Shown one piece after another: positions 18,866 through 28,830 of a stretch of 28,917 nt of DNA. The notes beneath the pieces are model-generated. The model was given only the letters and a program-made list of their open reading frames with translations, was not told the DNA's origin and did not search any database. This DNA is from a virus (lineage: Duplodnaviria; Caudoviricetes). The stretch spans positions 1 through 28,917 of the IMG/VR virus record IMGVR_UViG_3300017766_002961; one strand, 5' to 3'. A program made the translations under genes and the position numbers. Within the stretch, counting starts at the first letter, position 1. Each line of letters begins with the position of its first letter.

Positions 18866-18869
18866 TTAG

Positions 18870-19080
18870 CTCCGTTGGCCAGGAGATCGTAAAACACAGA
18901 CTGCCTCTTAACAATGCACACTATCTGTTCTCATCGTATAGGAGATAGAGTTAGCCTTCTCGATGTCATTTAAAAAGGCAAGTGTTGTTTCCTTGAGAAA
19001 GAAATGTGAGGATTTGCAGAGTAAAAGGAGTTAATACTGCAAGAACGCTCTCACAACACAGAGGACTTCTCATCCTCAAC
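18870..19080 (+). ncRNA. Candidate structured ncRNA with two kissing-loop pairs
   Basis: Several stems in a non-coding gap, with loop complementarities CATCG/CGATG and TGAGAA/TTCTCA. Confidence 0.5.
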
Positions 19081-19083
19081 ATA

Positions 19084-19202
19084 AAAGGAGTCGTGTATTG
19101 GTACATCGGATTGTTATAGCACCGATAGCAAAAAACACATAAACAAGATGTGGTCACTATAATGACTGCTACACAAGGGTTCGAATCCCTTCTCCTTTTC
19201 TA
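19084..19202 (+). ncRNA. tRNA-like element (non-canonical anticodon and variable arms)
   Basis: Acceptor AAAGGAG/CTCCTTT, D-arm GTGT-ATTGGT-ACAT, perfect T-arm AAGGG-TTCGAAT-CCCTT, 3' end T-CTA. About 65 nt between D and T arms. Confidence 0.6.
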
Positions 19203-19214
19203 GATTGAGCAGAT

Positions 19215-21572: not shown

Positions 21573-21585
21573 ATTACTCAAGAAG

Positions 21586-21607
21586 AGCCTCGCAAGAGGC
21601 TTTTTTT
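21586..21607 (+). terminator. Intrinsic terminator
   Basis: AGCCTC-GCAA-GAGGCT with GNRA loop and T7 run. Confidence 0.88.
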
Positions 21608-22367
21608 ATACCCATAAAGTCCCCTATACGTCACAAAAACCCGAAAAATTGTGACACATAAGTCACATTATAGTATGACTCCTCAGTCATTAAAGTCAAA
21701 ATATGGCTTTACGGTCAGCGATCCCACACAATAGTATGGTTTAATAGTCATTTTCTCTCCACAGAACAGTTCTGCATATTTAAATGAGCTAGATGTTATA
21801 AATAACACCCGTCCGATATAAACGGACAACCAACAAAAGACAGTAAACCACTCCTACTGGCAAATGTTTGTCGCAATTATAGTAAACTTTTGCGACAGCT
21901 GTTGTAGATAATTATCACCAGAATCAACACTATCGTTGATAATAATCCCCAACCCCTATAACGAACCCACCGCGTTCGCAATAGTTACATTCTGCAACCA
22001 AATGGTTAGTACCACTAACCAACTCCCAAAAAAAACAAGATCCCAGCAAAATCAGCTATTCCAACGATGGACAAATCGCATTTGGATCAAATTGTTTAGA
22101 ATCTTTTTTGAAAACAAAAAGCTAGAGAGAAGAGTGTAGAGGGGGGTTTCAGCACCAGACATGTATACCGCTCGCCCAGCGAAATCGCCCCTTCCGAACC
22201 CACCCCCCATGAAACCTTGTCCCTCTCCAAGCCCTGCACACAAGGCCTGCTCTACATTCCATGGCATTGTCCAAAGCCCCACAGCCCACAGCGTTTCCTC
22301 CAACGCCAATGATACCAAGGGATACAGAGGCACTAATATCATAACGTTTCCTGCCATATATTCAAGT

Positions 22368-22574
22368 GTGTACTTTATACACTAACTAAGTGTACACAAT
22401 ACACTAACCAATCAGAACCTCTCCTGTTATTGTGCAACACCACCATGAGTTATACACATTGCCATGTTGATAAAGATATGTTAAGGCCAACACAATAAAT
22501 CACGGCACCCATAGTTGACCCAACCCTTGCACTTAGTGTACATTATACACCAACCCTTAGTGTATCCTGTACAC
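22368..22574. repeat. Four GTGTA-N5-TACAC palindromes in two tandem pairs
   Basis: Copies at 22368-22382, 22390-22404, 22536-22550 and 22560-22574. Confidence 0.8.
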
Positions 22575-22794
22575 CTTTGCCCTAATTTCAGCACCAAAAA
22601 CCCAAATTCGGGAACTCTTGGAACACCTGCTAAACCAACATCTTCATCCCATATGCCCTTCTGAAACCCTTGTCATTACTGCGATTCATAAACATTGCGA
22701 TTTTCTTTAATTTTTTTCTCATTGATATTCAGTCAGTTAACTATTTATTTTCATTTTTTTTTCATCCCAACACAATAAACATTTGAGCAATTAC

Positions 22795-23222
22795 ATTATT
22801 ACTACAGATTCCAACGGGAATCACGAAAATTGAAATAGTGTATAACTGCCGCAACTGAATAGTTATAGCTCCATGCATATGTGAATAACCATAGGAGTGA
22901 ATTACAGAGTTATTATACATTATGATATGAATAGTAAGTGGAGCAACCTGCAACCATGATTGGAGGAGTAACTTAACCGATGCTAGAAGGGGTAGTGAAA
23001 CACTGAAGCAGGGACGCACATAGCGGAAAAGCGTATAAAGCCCGCAGTTCTTTGAAGTATGAGAGGAGTTAACAGGAGTAACATTGATAGGGGTCAATGC
23101 CTGTGGAGGAGGTAATCTGAAAAGGGGAGCAGGGCCGTGAGGACTGCACCTTTTCGTTAACGTATCACAACTAGATTCCGAAGGTCTAGCAGTATTCTAC
23201 TGAATACAGACGGGCGAACTAA
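22795..23222 (+). ncRNA. Candidate large structured ncRNA / early leader RNA
   Basis: About 430 nt without a credible ORF, more than ten hand-identified helices including long-range pairings, and a boxA-like AGTTCTTTGAA. Confidence 0.55.
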
Positions 23223-23248: not shown

Positions 23249-23359
23249 ATGAGAACCACGCAAATCTTGAGAATCGAGAACGGATTCGAAATTATTGGAC
23301 TATTCGAGGACGGAGTATTAATCCGCGAGATGAAACGTAGAGTCCGTGGATGGGACTGA
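23249..23359 (+). CDS. Small hypothetical protein (36 aa)
   Basis: Manual ORF MRTTQILRIENGFEIIGLFEDGVLIREMKRRVRGWD, preceded by the shared TAACCACTTAA...TACAGCTATG leader. Confidence 0.6.
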   Translation: MRTTQILRIENGFEIIGLFEDGVLIREMKRRVRGWD

Positions 23360-23408: not shown

Positions 23409-23630
23409 ATGGAAAACACGACAGAATTTATCTTACAGGAAAACGTACTAACCAACAACACATTACTTATAGCTGATGAAGGCTATGTATTCAAAGGGGG
23501 CTATGTAGCTGTAATTCGAGAGTATGTTTATGCTAACGAGTGGAGCGACATAGAGGTTGTTAAAAAATTCAGAACACTTGAAAGTTTGAACAAATACCTC
23601 GATAAAAAATACCCAAACTGCGAACTTTAA
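23409..23630 (+). CDS. Hypothetical early-region protein
   Basis: 73 aa with shared leader motif. Confidence 0.7.
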   Translation: MENTTEFILQENVLTNNTLLIADEGYVFKGGYVAVIREYVYANEWSDIEVVKKFRTLESLNKYLDKKYPNCEL

Positions 23631-23652
23631 TAACAACTTAAAACTTAATAAA

Positions 23653-23823
23653 ATGAAAAACGCCACAATTGAAACCCTTTTGTTCTTGAGCATGCTTGTA
23701 TCAACCCTCGGAGTATTCTTTGGTATTGCCTTGCAGTCAATTGAATTTACAACGATGATGATGATTTGCTTCTTCACTGCTTTTGCAGGAATTGTAATCC
23801 ACTTGAGAGAATTAAAAAAGTAA
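23653..23823 (+). CDS. Small two-helix membrane protein (56 aa)
   Basis: Manual ORF MKNATIETLLFLSMLVSTLGVFFGIALQSIEFTTMMMICFFTAFAGIVIHLRELKK. Confidence 0.65.
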   Translation: MKNATIETLLFLSMLVSTLGVFFGIALQSIEFTTMMMICFFTAFAGIVIHLRELKK

Positions 23824-23844
23824 TAACCATAAAACCATAACAAC

Positions 23845-24351
23845 ATGATTGCACGAATTTTAACAGCCCAACAAATCAAGGAATCTGAAGGGCGTAACTA
23901 CAACCCACAAATTTGGTTGTCTAATGTCGATGAAATGGTGAGCAAATACAGGGACGTGGTGTTCTACCATGTGCCGAAGGATGACTTGTTCAGCTACGAC
24001 AGGTACTTTGTCGAGTACACCTTGGATACAGGTCTAAGGCTATTCAAATCTTTCAGCTACAGCAGTAGTATGACCAATGGAGGTTTTTATAGGCTCGATA
24101 AGTTCCCTGTAACAGCCGATGGAAAAGACATGCAGGACGCCATAAGCATGTTTGAGTCGGGTGATACGGAAGGTGCTAAACAGCTATCTACTGAGTTGAT
24201 TAATAACCCTAGCATTTTTAAAATTGAGAGCGGTAAATTCATGACCCAAGATGGCGACATGGTCATGATAAACACTACAAAAGAGGCTCGTGATTGGATG
24301 ACTGAACGTAGTATTCAGTACGGCTTGACATTCACCAAAGGCTTGTTTTAA
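23845..24351 (+). CDS. Hypothetical early-region protein
   Basis: 168 aa with A-rich leader. Confidence 0.75.
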   Translation: MIARILTAQQIKESEGRNYNPQIWLSNVDEMVSKYRDVVFYHVPKDDLFSYDRYFVEYTLDTGLRLFKSFSYSSSMTNGGFYRLDKFPVTADGKDMQDAISMFESGDTEGAKQLSTELINNPSIFKIESGKFMTQDGDMVMINTTKEARDWMTERSIQYGLTFTKGLF

Positions 24352-24356
24352 TTCAC

Positions 24357-24381
24357 GGAGGGGAGCGACTCCACAACGCTC
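24357..24381 (+). other. Intergenic H-type RNA pseudoknot candidate
   Basis: GGAG-gg-GAGCG-a-CTCC-acaa-CGCTC. Confidence 0.5.
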
Positions 24382-24412
24382 ATATTTTATTAACCACTTA
24401 AATTTATAAAAC

Positions 24413-24751
24413 ATGAAAACAACATGGAACATTGGGCTGAACAACAACCCATACACAGCTACATTAATCATTGACGCAATTACCACGGCCTTTCCTCATA
24501 ACGAGGGGTATATAGTGGCCTACAGGGAACACATGGGAGAGTGGGAGGGAAGACCCGAACCGACCCTTGTAATTGAGGTAATTGGAGAGCAGGACGCAGA
24601 TTCTATGGTCATCCTAACCAAAATGATGTGCATAGCTTTCACACAGGACGCAATTGCCGTTCGCAACAACGAAGACGGGGTACTTGTTTACAACCCTAAA
24701 TTTGAAGGTGAGCAGTACACATTCGACCCTCAATACTTTCACGAAATCTAA
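24413..24751 (+). CDS. Hypothetical early-region protein
   Basis: 112 aa; NIGL...G.W.G..EPTLV...QDAIAV pattern; shared leader motif. Confidence 0.75.
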   Translation: MKTTWNIGLNNNPYTATLIIDAITTAFPHNEGYIVAYREHMGEWEGRPEPTLVIEVIGEQDADSMVILTKMMCIAFTQDAIAVRNNEDGVLVYNPKFEGEQYTFDPQYFHEI

Positions 24752-24776
24752 TTATAAACCCTTAAAATTTACAGCT

Positions 24777-25088
24777 ATGACAAAGAGACAATTGAATCAA
24801 TTCGAGAAAGACGTTGCAGATGAAATCAGAAATTTCATCGAGTATTACACCTCTGACGAGGAGGTAGGTATCAGAATGTTTAACACCTTGGATGACTACA
24901 TGGACGAGGTGTACGAACAGCCACGAGAGGTCATGGTATTCACCTTTGACGTACGCAACGGACAGGATATCTTTTGGAAGAAAGCTATCATGGACGAATC
25001 ACCTACAGCGGAGTACATTCCTGCCGAGGAATTGCACCTGTGGGTGGCTAAGTATCGAGGCTATGGGTGGGAGGTAAAGGTTAACTGA
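24777..25088 (+). CDS. Hypothetical early-region protein
   Basis: Start at MTKRQ (24777) after TACAGCT. Its TGA stop lies in the hammerhead core. Confidence 0.7.
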   Translation: MTKRQLNQFEKDVADEIRNFIEYYTSDEEVGIRMFNTLDDYMDEVYEQPREVMVFTFDVRNGQDIFWKKAIMDESPTAEYIPAEELHLWVAKYRGYGWEVKVN

Positions 25089-25136
25089 CGAGTCTTGAGT
25101 AGACGAAACGTGAGGCTACGGCCTCATGTATTAACC
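25079..25136 (+). ncRNA. Type I hammerhead ribozyme
   Basis: Stem I GGTTAA/TTAACC, core CTGACGA, stem II GTCT-TGAGT-AGAC, GAAA, stem III CGTGAGGC-TACG-GCCTCATG, cleavage triplet GTA (25128-25130). Confidence 0.93.
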
Positions 25137-25150
25137 AATACAAAAACACC

Positions 25151-25429
25151 ATGAAGAAATCAGAAATTTTAAATGCCTATGTTACGGCTATCGAGACTGG
25201 CCAATGGGACTTTCCAAAAGGTCATGTGTTCCAAAATGTGAGCGAAATCTACAGCCTAGTCGCGGAGGGGAAGACCATCTACGAATTCGCTGAAGCAGGG
25301 GCTATCAAGTTCGGGACAATTACAGGAACTATCCTTGGGTTCTCCATGCAGAGCAACGGAGTGGGAGGATACGTTAGCCAATCGACTCGTAAGGCTTTAC
25401 GCAAGGCCATCAATTATGTAATCAATTAA
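25151..25429 (+). CDS. Hypothetical early-region protein
   Basis: 92 aa, AAACACC-ATG leader, immediately 3' of the hammerhead. Confidence 0.75.
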   Translation: MKKSEILNAYVTAIETGQWDFPKGHVFQNVSEIYSLVAEGKTIYEFAEAGAIKFGTITGTILGFSMQSNGVGGYVSQSTRKALRKAINYVIN

Positions 25430-25441
25430 AAACAAAAACTA

Positions 25442-25606
25442 ATGAAGACTAAAAGATATATATTAACGCTTCTTAATGATACAGGAGACGTAATTGACGC
25501 TAGGATATTCTACGCTTTGAGTCGAGATGAGGCGTTAAAACAAGCAAAACTCTTTCTCAACTTTCAAGGTCTTAAACAAAAATTCAAACTTAATCTTCTT
25601 AAATAA
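25442..25606 (+). CDS. Small hypothetical protein (54 aa)
   Basis: Manual ORF MKTKRYILTLLNDTGD...KLNLLK filling the gap. Confidence 0.6.
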   Translation: MKTKRYILTLLNDTGDVIDARIFYALSRDEALKQAKLFLNFQGLKQKFKLNLLK

Positions 25607-25614
25607 TAAACGCT

Positions 25615-25833
25615 ATGAACCTGTACGAATTAAAAGTATATGCCAAGGAAAAAATGTTGGCTTACCCTCAATTGAGAGAGGAAATTTGGTCTTACGTTGA
25701 ACTAGCCTATTCGGAAGTCGAGGAGGGGAACAACGAGAGTCGTGAATGCGATATGGCTGTTAATGACATTGACTTTATAATCAATGAAATGATAATTGAA
25801 CATCATATCGAAAAAGAGACTGGCAATAATTAA
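25615..25833 (+). CDS. Hypothetical acidic protein
   Basis: 72 aa in tandem array. Confidence 0.7.
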   Translation: MNLYELKVYAKEKMLAYPQLREEIWSYVELAYSEVEEGNNESRECDMAVNDIDFIINEMIIEHHIEKETGNN

Positions 25834-25854
25834 TAACCCTTAAAAACAAAAGCT

Positions 25855-26361
25855 ATGAAATACACAACACAAGAAGGCTTTACTTGGGAGATTGTAACCA
25901 AGGAGAAAGCAATTGAACTTATTAAATTAGGTGCAGAGGTCTACAAGGTATACGATGACGAGAGCGAGGACTTGATTGACATGGAGGACGAACTATGGGA
26001 CGTTGACGGACTCATGTTCTACGCCATCGATGGAAACACCGCAAGGATTTTTTCAAACCAATCTCCCATCAAATGGGCTAGAGTAGATACGGCCACAGGA
26101 AAAGGAATGAACGAGGGCTTCTGCGTTAACGATGGAGACGCTTACTTCGTAGACAAAGCAGACCTAGTTAAGTACCTTAGAGAAGAGATGAACGTAGACG
26201 AGAACAACGAACTATCGGACGAGTTCATCTTGGAAGAGGCTTACCAAGAAGAGGAGGAGGGCTACTACTACTACACCGAGTGGGACGTAGAAGACGAAGA
26301 GTATTGGTACGAGGAGCAAGAGGATGGAACGCTCAAAGAAGTTTGGGCTGACGAATTATAA
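25855..26361 (+). CDS. Highly acidic hypothetical protein
   Basis: 168 aa, D/E- and aromatic-rich; GKGMNEGF...YYTEW segment. Confidence 0.75.
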   Translation: MKYTTQEGFTWEIVTKEKAIELIKLGAEVYKVYDDESEDLIDMEDELWDVDGLMFYAIDGNTARIFSNQSPIKWARVDTATGKGMNEGFCVNDGDAYFVDKADLVKYLREEMNVDENNELSDEFILEEAYQEEEEGYYYYTEWDVEDEEYWYEEQEDGTLKEVWADEL

Positions 26362-26390
26362 ATTAACATAACCATAAATAACTAAACACC

Positions 26391-26696
26391 ATGAACATCA
26401 ACGAAAGTAAATTTATCTGCACGGAATATGACTCGTACGGAAGTTATGAATCATACAGACGCTTGAGCGGTAAAATAACAAAGCAACGCAGAAAAGCGAT
26501 TGAGAAAATTGTTCGCACATTTAACCACAAATGGGATGCTCCATACGGAGTCTCACCAAACGGATACGCCTACCGATGTGGTCACATACATGATTGTTGC
26601 GGATGCCTTGTTTCCAAGGGGATGTCAGTCGAGTTCAAGAAACTGGGCAAATCACATGTAGCAGTTTTGACAATTTACGAATCTTTTAACCTCTAA
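26391..26696 (+). CDS. Hypothetical protein with CxHxHDCCGC motif
   Basis: 101 aa; CGHIHDCCGC suggests metal binding. Confidence 0.75.
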   Translation: MNINESKFICTEYDSYGSYESYRRLSGKITKQRRKAIEKIVRTFNHKWDAPYGVSPNGYAYRCGHIHDCCGCLVSKGMSVEFKKLGKSHVAVLTIYESFNL

Positions 26697-26707
26697 AACT
26701 AAACACC

Positions 26708-27004
26708 ATGAACACAGAAGAAAAAAAGCTAATTGATTATTTGACGAGCAGAATTGCTCATAAACTTGGAGAACTTCGCTCAGACCGAAAAATGCTCTCA
26801 ATCGATCTTGAAATCGACTATCAAGGCTCAGTGATTAACGTGGAGGGCTATGCTGACTTCTTTGTCAAGGACGAGGAGGAAATGTATGACTTCACCTGTA
26901 CCCGATTTACTATCACCTCCTTTGGAGGGGAGGAATTCATTGATGAGTACATGGATGAATCTGTAACCGAAATGCCAACTAAACTTTTAACCCAAATTAT
27001 TTAA
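26708..27004 (+). CDS. Hypothetical protein
   Basis: 98 aa with AAACACC-ATG leader. Confidence 0.7.
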   Translation: MNTEEKKLIDYLTSRIAHKLGELRSDRKMLSIDLEIDYQGSVINVEGYADFFVKDEEEMYDFTCTRFTITSFGGEEFIDEYMDESVTEMPTKLLTQII

Positions 27005-27008
27005 CACC

Positions 27009-27215
27009 ATGAACATAGACAAACTTATCGCCTATGAGTCGGGAGACTTAAGCGATTCCGAAACAATCAACTTTTTTGCAGACCTTATCAAGACCAAGAT
27101 GGCTTGGAGTTTACAGGGACATTACGGACGTGTAGCATCAGCCATGATAGATGCAGGGTTCATTTCTTCTGAGGGAGAGGTGACCGAGTTAGCTAACGAA
27201 ACATTTAACCACTAA
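27009..27215 (+). CDS. Conserved small phage protein
   Basis: YE.G.L.......F..LI....AW.LQG.YGR.A..MI.AG pattern, recurrent in phage early regions. Confidence 0.75.
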   Translation: MNIDKLIAYESGDLSDSETINFFADLIKTKMAWSLQGHYGRVASAMIDAGFISSEGEVTELANETFNH

Positions 27216-27227
27216 AACTTAAATACC

Positions 27228-27455
27228 ATGAACATCACAATTGAAAAACGCCCAATGCAACAGCACATCGGAGGCTCTTGCGACTATGTATTCCAATCAC
27301 GTCAGAAGGCTTTGTCCAGATTCTTTGAACTGGCGGATGAATTGGACTATGAGGTATCCGTTAGCTATCACAAGAACCTTATCACCTACGAAGGTGGAGG
27401 GAGGGGCTGTGACTATCGAATTGAATTAACCCTAACATCCATAGACCATGAATGA
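27228..27455 (+). CDS. Hypothetical protein
   Basis: 75 aa in tandem array. Confidence 0.7.
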   Translation: MNITIEKRPMQQHIGGSCDYVFQSRQKALSRFFELADELDYEVSVSYHKNLITYEGGGRGCDYRIELTLTSIDHE

Positions 27456-27630
27456 GACAGCGTTGTTTTTAAATGATGTTCTTGGGAGCGGTGTAACCTT
27501 TGAGGTATACCACAACCGAAAACTAATTTACAGGAAACACTACGACCACAAGCGTTCTTTAGCAGACCTCGTGAAGTCTTTCGAGGAGTGGAAAGAAGAC
27601 CAAGAAAACTTTAAAAAGATAATGCCATGA
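27448..27630 (+). CDS. Hypothetical protein
   Basis: 60 aa overlapping neighbours. Confidence 0.65.
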   Translation: MNETALFLNDVLGSGVTFEVYHNRKLIYRKHYDHKRSLADLVKSFEEWKEDQENFKKIMP

Positions 27631-27776
27631 AAATAGACGTGAAAATACCACCAAGCATGGACGTTAAACACGCAATGGAAAGCATCTCGGATGCGTTGTA
27701 CTTCAGTGGAAATGTAACGCAGGAGGAGTATGACTTTGTTTACAACATTCTTCAACAAATACAATTAAAAAAGTAA
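27627..27776 (+). CDS. Small hypothetical protein (49 aa)
   Basis: Manual ORF MKIDVKIPPSMD...QIQLKK with ATGA overlap. Confidence 0.6.
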   Translation: MKIDVKIPPSMDVKHAMESISDALYFSGNVTQEEYDFVYNILQQIQLKK

Positions 27777-27780
27777 TGCC

Positions 27781-27954
27781 ATGAAAGTAAAAATCAACGG
27801 ACAGGTGTATGACGTTATCTCATACCAATCAGAAAATTTAGGGACTCGTGCAAACCCCGAAATGTATCTCAAGGAAGTTACAGCCGATGTCAACGGAGTT
27901 GCTACCACATTCTCAGTAGATAATAATGAAATAGAGTTGGGAGGTGTGCTATGA
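27781..27954 (+). CDS. Small hypothetical protein (57 aa)
   Basis: Manual ORF MKVKINGQVYDV...ELGGVL; stop overlaps the next ATG. Confidence 0.65.
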   Translation: MKVKINGQVYDVISYQSENLGTRANPEMYLKEVTADVNGVATTFSVDNNEIELGGVL

Positions 27955-28244
27955 ACATGGAGCAATTCGATAGATGGATGTACACCGAATACATCAAGGC
28001 CATAGCTGAGATACAGGAGGTATGCCCGTACACGAGGAAAGACATTGACTTTAAAACTTGCGTAGTTGTCGATGGTTACATAGGGGAGGAGGTTTGCTCA
28101 ACTATAGCCTTTCATCCCGATGCTATGAATAAGGAGTCGTTCCTGTATAACTTGAGAAACGATTTTGCCAGGATGCAGATGAGACCCATATTCATGTCTC
28201 TGAATAAAAAAGTAATCAACACAATCAACGCAATTAAAAACTAA
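27951..28244 (+). CDS. Hypothetical protein
   Basis: 97 aa in tandem array. Confidence 0.7.
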   Translation: MNMEQFDRWMYTEYIKAIAEIQEVCPYTRKDIDFKTCVVVDGYIGEEVCSTIAFHPDAMNKESFLYNLRNDFARMQMRPIFMSLNKKVINTINAIKN

Positions 28245-28249
28245 ACGTC

Positions 28250-28417
28250 ATGAACACCTATGAAAAAATTTCCTTGGCCATCGGAGTCATTGTATTTCTG
28301 ATTTGTTTCTTCGCCATACTTTTAAACAATGAGAGGTGGGCTATAGTTGGAACACTTTCTTTGATATCTTTGTGGCTCATAAATAAAATTCAAAACTTAA
28401 TTAACAAATTTCTATGA
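28250..28417 (+). CDS. Small two-helix membrane protein (55 aa)
   Basis: Manual ORF MNTYEKISLAIGVIVFLICFFAILLNNERWAIVGTLSLISLWLINKIQNLINKFL; ATGA overlap with the next gene. Confidence 0.65.
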   Translation: MNTYEKISLAIGVIVFLICFFAILLNNERWAIVGTLSLISLWLINKIQNLINKFL

Positions 28418-28830
28418 AAACAAAAATCGAAAAACTAATTGCACTTGCTGTTAAGTGTAGAGACCTTGCATCTGAATTTTCAGTGTATGGTGAGTACATC
28501 AAGTGCGTCAAAGGAATTGCTGTTTACATTGGAGACAGCAAGCTGGGTTATTCATCCGTGAACTTTACCCTCGGCAATGACTTTGACCTGCTACATGAGT
28601 TTAAGGTGACCATATCGAATGTCAGCGGTATATGTGTATCTATGCCATTCAATGAGGATGTGGAAAAGTACCTTGACGAATTAACCATGGAGGTCACGAG
28701 AAGTTATTCGTCTTGGCTAGAGACAATTGATGACACGTTAAATCAAAAGAGAGTAGAATGGGCAAAGATGAAAAGAAGCCAAATTGAGACCTTAGAAAAA
28801 GAAATCAAAAGACTGGAGGGCGAACTATGA
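28414..28830 (+). CDS. Hypothetical protein with C-terminal coiled coil
   Basis: 138 aa; IETLEKEIKRLE tail. Confidence 0.7.
   Translation: MKTKIEKLIALAVKCRDLASEFSVYGEYIKCVKGIAVYIGDSKLGYSSVNFTLGNDFDLLHEFKVTISNVSGICVSMPFNEDVEKYLDELTMEVTRSYSSWLETIDDTLNQKRVEWAKMKRSQIETLEKEIKRLEGEL

Follow-up and report, generated by a model that had tools for sequence, protein, structure and literature searches.

The DNA analysed here, referred to as the window, is a stretch of 28,917 nucleotides from a freshwater phage, IMG/VR virus record IMGVR_UViG_3300017766_002961, which is 43% complete. It encodes portal, terminase, SSB and primase/helicase proteins. The terminase has approximately 25% identity to its counterparts in Flavobacterium, Cellulophaga, Tenacibaculum and Maribacter phages, a number of them classed as Pachyviridae, and because of these relatives we infer a Flavobacteriia-type (Bacteroidota) host. 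Terminases 77-99% identical to that of the window are found at 44 IMG/VR loci. The element under study precedes an array of short co-oriented genes on the plus strand (23409-28830), which is probably early. Upstream of the element lie a terminator-like hairpin (21585-21607) and a stretch of 1.2 kb in which no gene was recognised. About five palindrome-like GTGTACA/TACAC repeats (22359-22579), present also in the related genomes G031 and G040, are located upstream of the promoter; they could represent packaging sites, an origin or operators close to the end of the genome. The first ORF behind the element (23249-23359, plus strand) encodes 36 amino acids with a basic C-terminus and has no family in PHROG or Pfam; the gene at this place varies from leader to leader. 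Within the array, the plus-strand gene at 24413-24751 is weakly SAM-lyase-like (PF23780 at an E-value of 0.001, below cut-off; phrog_2226; T3 gene 0.3-like families). This makes it a possible anti-restriction gene, which fits an early region. A type I hammerhead ribozyme (25079-25135, plus strand) with a CUGACGA/GAAAC core and a GUA site is located between early genes (z -4.69) and is unmatched by Rfam at E 1; RAGATH-1-like hammerheads scoring below cut-off occur in relatives. A terminator scan of the array returned one weak plus-strand site and no more. A second non-coding stretch of about 340 nt (18866-19205, plus strand) lies within another operon. G032 and G037 match its first 120 nt at 88% identity, and its 3' end consists of an acceptor-like stem (19083/19192), a T arm (19178) and CTA. 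This stretch probably constitutes another RNA cassette equipped with a tRNA mimic of its own.

The element itself is a real, conserved, non-coding and modular cassette of approximately 420 nt that precedes the probable early array in Pachyviridae-like phages. Its putative promoter is a degenerate Bacteroidota-type -7 box on the plus strand (22778-22785) with one mismatch to TAnnTTTG, which we take to be the consensus of this phylum; the start site is uncertain. A TAnnTTTG or TAnnATTG box occurs within 30 nt of the 5' hairpin in 13 of 23 leaders, and about 20 nt further upstream in the subgroup of the window. A sigma-70 promoter scan was set aside as uninformative for this host group. All further parts are on the plus strand. 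The 5' hairpin (22807-22822) has a C(AACG)G loop, shows covariation and folds with a z of -2.93. It is followed by module D1 (22835-22923), a long interrupted hairpin common to the eight aligned relatives only, and by module D2 (22940-23012), in which GGAGCAA precedes a CCTGC/GCAGG stem that closes a variable junction containing GGAGTAA. The H-type pseudoknot PK1 (23014-23045) ends at a boxA of the Bacteroidota rRNA-operon type (23046-23055). Further downstream are a hairpin with a 5-nt AGUAA bulge (23072-23104), which is also present in leaders L096 and L101, and an acceptor-stem-like hairpin with a GUGA tetraloop cap, followed by G-TTA (23118-23159), which occupies the position of the tRNA mimic of relatives and lacks a T arm. 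The cassette ends in a three-way junction (GTAT/ATAC, CTAGA/TCTAG and CAG/CTG; 23162-23214) with a loop-to-tail pseudoknot (23177-80/23211-14), which is confined to the clade of the window. A Shine-Dalgarno-like AGGAGG at 23107-23117, with no start codon behind it, is invariant in the four domain-3 sequences and is not enriched over the leaders (2 observed, 2.2 expected). Possible likenesses of PK1 (preQ1-I, SAM-II or type III antitoxin pseudoknots), of D2 (the P2 base of c-di-GMP-I) and of the 3' module (a hammerhead or HDV core) are unsupported by Rfam.

When the 44 terminase records were searched with the DNA, three of them matched domains 1-2 at 70-73%, and three others had shorter matches at the same locus. 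Pattern scans of viral contigs contributed 3 true leaders among 5 matches, 15 among 18, 11 among 12, and 9 full-length ones among 17. The last of these used the pattern of a second pseudoknot, PK2; six matches in ORFs and two cut by contig ends were left out. A promoter-plus-hairpin pattern without boxA matched 109 loci, 56 of the 81 distinct ones lying in long frames and being mostly due to chance. L113, L119 and L120, which are identical to the window, and exact duplicates were not counted. After removal of duplicates and chance matches the set comprised 30 leaders, many of them still near-duplicates and most found with patterns that include boxA. The leader-bearing records tested encode terminases 36-83% identical to that of the window. 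Neither the leader of the window nor the stretch of a relative from pseudoknot through boxA to mimic had a blastn match in 50,697 GenBank phages, and domain-3 patterns had no match in viral contigs in both scans. The first-pass annotation had named the element as a candidate for an undescribed system. No Rfam family scored above cut-off for any leader, matches at E up to 10 were at chance level only, and the 601-nt stretch of the window had none at E 10. The searched part of the literature, including portions of PMC5737381 and PMC5725501 and excluding most subscription journals, holds no description of the leader. The IMG/VR csRNA catalogue of Fremin et al. (PMC10690425) contains 8495 models with structures of 29-151 nt; six module strings were absent from those of its supplements that were searched, and the catalogue may list single modules. 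One 185-nt contig of a freshwater metatranscriptome (X16) spans positions 22924-23108 with no differences; it is the sole hint of expression and may be DNA carry-over. Over 20 kb the same metatranscriptome otherwise holds pieces of 18-57 nt only, from other contigs; such contigs are uninformative on strand, ends and level, and uncovered stretches prove nothing.

The region had initially been described as one structured RNA of about 430 nt with three domains, and all strings quoted for its helices are present at the positions given. Its folding energy is unremarkable compared to shuffled sequences (MFE -106.5, z -1.47, 10 of 100 shuffles as good). Across 17 leaders z ranged from -2.7 to +1.7 (25 shuffles each), and folding energy was rejected as uninformative evidence of structure. 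Covarying homologs were found, with a sample of eight relatives for domains 1-2 and three for domain 3. Among the nine aligned domain 1-2 sequences, two-sided changes are present in 18 of 44 RNAalifold pairs. The GATTCC/GGAATC stem of the 5' hairpin is paired in 39 of 48 cells, with two-sided changes in four of six pairs (MAFFT register, three rows shifted), the 11-bp stem of domain 1 in 68 of 88 cells (6/11 pairs), CCTGC/GCAGG in 39 of 40 (3/5 pairs) and GCAG/CTGC in 12 of 12 (2/4 pairs). ACAGG/CCTGT and GAAAAGG/CCTTTTC are kept but invariant. CATTGAT/GTCAATG is paired in 18 of 21 cells. Runs X5 and X9 hold compensatory changes for it, as they do for the hairpin with the AGUAA bulge, and have six further paired substitutions in domain 3 with pairing kept in all.

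Three other proposed helices lack support from covariation. TTACTA/TAGTAA, thought to close domain 1, is paired in 31 of 48 cells without any two-sided change, and its 5' strand is freely variable; TAGTG/CACTG likewise lacks two-sided changes (23/40 paired), and GTATTC/GAATAC (12/18) is replaced by GTAT at 23162 with ATAC at 23204 plus CAG/CTG. GCCCG/CGGGC, proposed to close domain 3, and AGTTC/GAACT, proposed as a pseudoknot over boxA, can pair in three relatives, but neither shows a two-sided change. Their 5' strands are better assigned to stem 2 of PK1 and to boxA, respectively, and an adjacent 5+5 complement of this kind arises in 102 of 2000 shuffles. Two pseudoknots, PK1 and the one at 23177-80/23211-14, had been overlooked. 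The revised domain-3 fold, consisting of bulged hairpin, GUGA hairpin, junction and pseudoknot, is paired in 98% of cells among four sequences, with four two-sided pairs and 1 of 500 shuffles as good. The recurrence of a GGAG[CT]AA motif was borne out (12 observed in 14 leaders against 1.3 after shuffling, spread over seven leaders), the motif having been picked post hoc. The presence of compensatory changes in every domain speaks against the view that this is neutral DNA near the genome end that folds by chance, or a coding sequence on the minus strand. A 111-amino-acid ORF is indeed present there (22762-23097), and the MFE z is weak. However, the frame contains stops in six of eight relatives and has no family match, so that it was rejected as a gene, and chance folding does not account for the compensatory changes. 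Such an origin is thus extremely improbable.

Judged by comparison of sequences, PK1 is the best-supported part of the cassette. Stem 1 is formed by 23014-17/23031-34 and stem 2 by 23023-26/23042-45, and loop 3 is A-rich. Stem 1, which was outside every search pattern used, is fully Watson-Crick paired in all 19 distinct versions, representing five sequence types, compared to a mean of 5.9 when partners were dealt among sequences. The covariation score of PK1, 0.342, was not reached in any of 500 shuffles. A descriptor of PK1 matched 22 of 24 leaders with boxA and 1 of 70 host spacers. The distance between PK1 and boxA is fixed at 0-2 nt, and the two therefore look like a cis unit.

The resemblance to boxA mentioned in the first-pass annotation proved to be an identity with the signal of the Bacteroidota rRNA spacer. 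Positions 23046-23055 harbor the sole GTTC[AT]TTGA of the whole window. Host genomes were searched with the 17-nt extended boxA of a relative, of which the window shares the 10-nt core only, in 8 of 64 parts of GTDB. This string occurred at 122 loci, of which 87 lie 41-290 nt before the 23S start motif and 77 have a tRNA-Ala upstream; among the matches listed, 71 of 80 titles are Bacteroidota names by our own reading. According to parts of PMC13753749 and PMC8632103, boxA of E. coli loads NusB:S10 and is by itself enough to nucleate the rRNA antitermination complex; the interface of NusB and S10 has been examined in four phyla, Bacteroidota among them. The sequence 3' of boxA differs among leaders, and no conserved boxB hairpin was found there. 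Nor was a covarying partner of boxA detected; the 3' strand of AGTTC/GAACT, which is pairable in the clade of the window, would be made 165 nt later.

All nine full-length leaders recovered with the PK2 pattern, which does not include boxA, contain boxA. It is absent together with PK1 in 6 of the 30 leaders, which share the same ends and have about 450 nt of other modules instead. L303, L304, L311, L320, L344 and L354 form a separate family of structured leaders of about 450-480 nt without boxA, in which hairpins with GAGCAA loops covary and which has no Rfam match. Among eight distant records, phi13:2, phi46:3, Gundel_1 and MW202828 have a short-gene array headed by a promoter of the Bacteroidota type and, a short distance behind it, a boxA, with model scores that are weak singly (E 0.006-0.05). 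Gundel_1 and MW202828 have a T-arm element after boxA, the array of phi13:2 holds ArdA, and PK1 was found in none of the four. The other four records (elemoE, Panino, phi38:1 and Calle_1) have no such leader. An exact E. coli-type boxA, unannotated in the records, is located between promoter A3 and gene 0.3 of T7 (813) and T3 (781); in T3 it immediately precedes the RNase III site. This boxA presumably has a functional role; none was found in the literature searched.

All 30 leaders open with a small hairpin, nearly always with the C(AACG)G loop. The same pattern also retrieved four Bacteroides-type tRNA-Ser genes in which this loop comes after the promoter. These loci (L301, L330, L394 and L401) are host-type tRNA-Ser(TGA) genes that have promoter and hairpin loop in common with the phage leaders; where leader and tRNA join, they are similar to the CTTGGAGAGGT within the phage mimic. 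The likeness of the junction and the shared promoter and hairpin hint that the frame of the cassette may be derived from a tRNA-Ser gene. At the opposite end, 24 of the 30 leaders have a tRNA mimic composed of a T arm, a 6-7-bp acceptor-like stem and a CTA end. The T stem is complete (5/5) in 19 leaders and 4/5 in five, the acceptor-like stem is 7/7 in 22, its 5' strand being the best match chosen within a 50-nt span, and CTA follows directly in 23. ARAGORN detected no tRNA in the window, relaxed predictions on relatives gave inconsistent anticodons, and a functional cloverleaf with an anticodon arm was not found in the cassette. The clade of the window has no T arm and carries the GUGA hairpin and the three-way junction instead.

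This replacement raises the question of what the 3' module does. It might be an undescribed self-cleaving or nuclease-blocking RNA (23162-23220) that substitutes for the tRNA mimic as the signal for processing, which would be compatible with the explanation preferred below. HDV-like ribozymes have a defined strand order, with which the module was compared by eye. They form a nested double pseudoknot (P1-P2-P3-P1.1-P4) with the catalytic C first in J4/2, whereas the covarying fold of the module is a three-way junction with one pseudoknot; its first stem has 4-5 bp only, and an extra hairpin breaks the HDV-like order. The module has no Rfam ribozyme match even at E 10, and it is represented by four sequences only, with no further copy in viral contigs. 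On the other hand, its first pair is G-C, its GGGCGAA tail is invariant in 4/4 sequences, and hammerheads lie between early genes of the window and its relatives. Its start, 6 nt past the acceptor-like stem, also corresponds to the position that theta ribozymes take behind phage tRNAs, as reported in part of PMC10879173. Taken together, a self-cleaving or blocking function is unlikely.

The content between the two ends of the leaders is a mosaic. D1 and D2 occur in ten leaders, the covarying pseudoknot PK2 in others, and there are further modules. The window shares D1-D2 with a clade whose terminases are 78-79% identical to its own and not with the 81-83% clade, which its upstream DNA and early genes resemble. 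A minimal leader of 114 nt (L369) has hairpin, boxA and mimic only. In the complete genome G036, the promoter and first-gene family of leader L098 are present with nothing between them, a possible assembly error; on the terminase tree this genome is nested in a cassette-bearing clade with support of 100/99. L118 and L245 carry modules of 300-400 nt 3' of boxA that are unlike each other and unlike domain 3 of the window. A short high-GC contig, apparently from another phage and host group, has a PK2 module with a T-arm-like hairpin (L248:140-157, minus strand).

Because parts are exchanged, boxA is missing in 6/30 leaders and the whole cassette is missing in G036, the cassette is not one three-domain RNA. 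The initial proposal of a large ncRNA or an antitermination leader thus holds as regards the lack of an Rfam family, the covarying homologs and the rRNA-type boxA, but not as regards a single RNA like GOLLD or ROOL. A large ornate RNA of this kind, with one global fold and a function in trans, would be in keeping with a length of 250-500 nt, several pseudoknots, the location on a phage and a tRNA-like neighbour. However, no covarying helix joins the modules, the closing helices proposed earlier fail or show no two-sided change, modules reassort down to the 114-nt version, and the GOLLD and ROOL models do not match. It is very unlikely that the cassette acts in this way.

Among known systems, the antitermination site of rRNA operons (boxB-boxA-boxC with NusB-S10, NusA, NusG, SuhB and S4) is a close counterpart in that the cassette shares the boxA of the Bacteroidota 16S-23S spacer, a structured element before boxA, a long putative untranslated RNA and a tRNA-shaped neighbour. 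The cassette differs by its location on a phage ahead of protein genes, its swappable flanking modules, its being optional, and a pseudoknot that abuts boxA, a fold present in one of the 70 host spacers. Like the cassette with its putative promoter, the early leader of T7 and T3 (promoters A1-A3, a boxA-like 12-mer, RNase III site R0.3 and gene 0.3) combines a host promoter and a host-type boxA with a probable host-nuclease site, followed by short early genes with an anti-restriction flavour; the presumed processing signal is a tRNA mimic in the cassettes, compared to an RNase III stem in T7/T3. Lambda nut and HK022 put are also RNA signals of early phage leaders, and the cassette, like them, likely modifies host RNA polymerase. 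In nut, however, boxB comes after boxA and N is required, whereas the boxA of the cassette comes after a pseudoknot, and the early proteins include none that was recognised as N-like, N proteins being hard to detect. HK022 put is a double hairpin of about 65 nt that needs no phage protein (described in part of PMC8632103). The conserved unit of the cassette is pseudoknot plus boxA without an Rfam match, and as it uses boxA, it is not put-like. GOLLD and ROOL are large, pseudoknotted, phage-encoded and near tRNA-type elements, according to part of bioRxiv 2024.12.08.627333. The cassette shares these traits, but is smaller, mosaic, first in its operon, carries boxA and has no covariance-model match. 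The acceptor-like stem and T arm of relatives, without a consistent anticodon arm, recall mascRNA/tmRNA-type mimics; the mascRNA model gave 24.7-25.9 bits in three relatives, below the 42.5-bit cut-off, and the leader of the window itself lacks a tRNA mimic. The cassette most likely works like a boxA leader of the rRNA-operon or T7/T3 type; it belongs to none of nut, put, GOLLD and ROOL.

The explanation that we consider moderately probable is that the cassette is a swappable mimic of a stable-RNA operon, whose boxA would load host NusB-S10 and thereby allow read-through of the cassette and the gene array. Host RNA polymerase would start at the upstream promoter, and the 5' hairpin would cap the RNA in the manner of host tRNA genes. 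PK1, at the position of boxB, might keep boxA single-stranded or stabilise the complex, and PK1-boxA would load Nus factors, enabling transcription through the untranslated cassette into the early array. In relatives, enzymes of the RNase P/Z type would cut the 3' tRNA mimic and separate the cassette from the mRNA, a task that the replacement modules may take over in the clade of the window. The remaining modules would be cargo on a frame of hairpin, boxA and mimic. This explanation is supported by the minimal leader L369, the identity of boxA with that of rRNA spacers, and the boxA of four of eight distant records and of T7/T3. Counting against it, the array has a single weak plus-strand terminator, so that Rho sites are assumed as the target, the promoter box of the window is degenerate, and half of the distant records have no such leader. 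Moreover, the lack of boxA in some leaders and of the cassette in G036 indicates that antitermination is not essential, and it leaves 300 or more bases of other modules unexplained.

With these modules unexplained and boxA optional, the main rival is that the cassette mainly delivers small folded RNAs, decoys that would work in trans against proteins or defence systems of the host. There, boxA and the tRNA mimic would serve synthesis and release, or would be decoys themselves, titrating NusB-S10 or absorbing tRNA nucleases. As with accessory genes, modules are gained, lost and swapped between phages; three or more distinct pseudoknots are among them, a GAG[CT]AA loop or bulge recurs, the whole cassette is optional, and it lies ahead of an array with a weakly SAM-lyase-like gene, or with ArdA in phi13:2. 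However, comparison with Rfam linked none of the modules to a family of antitoxins, CRISPR repeats or sponges, and the tight coupling of PK1 to boxA has the appearance of a cis unit. We regard delivery of decoys as possible but rather unlikely. In its fullest form, to which we give equally tentative credence, the cassette would be the RNA counterpart of the early anti-defence array, with swapped RNAs, namely pseudoknots, bulged hairpins, three-way junctions and tRNA mimics, that are cut free when infection starts and act in trans as decoys, and PK1-boxA would be a new protein-free Nus enhancer.

If the modules act in trans, phage counter-defence would have an RNA layer that is missed by protein-centred screens. 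If the cassette is a mimic of a stable-RNA operon, a family of Bacteroidota phages would borrow the rRNA read-through signal of its host without a recognisable N protein. New at this locus are the pseudoknot fixed to boxA, the optional nature of both boxA and cassette, and a tRNA mimic that has been replaced in one clade. The cultured phages phi13:2, phi46:3 and Gundel_1 make Nus antitermination in Bacteroidota directly testable, and G036 compared to G014, G016 and G019 provides natural pairs of absence and presence, with L369 as the minimal version. Beyond this, the leaders constitute a pool of undescribed compact RNA folds, three pseudoknots or more among them, which are exchanged in the manner of accessory genes.
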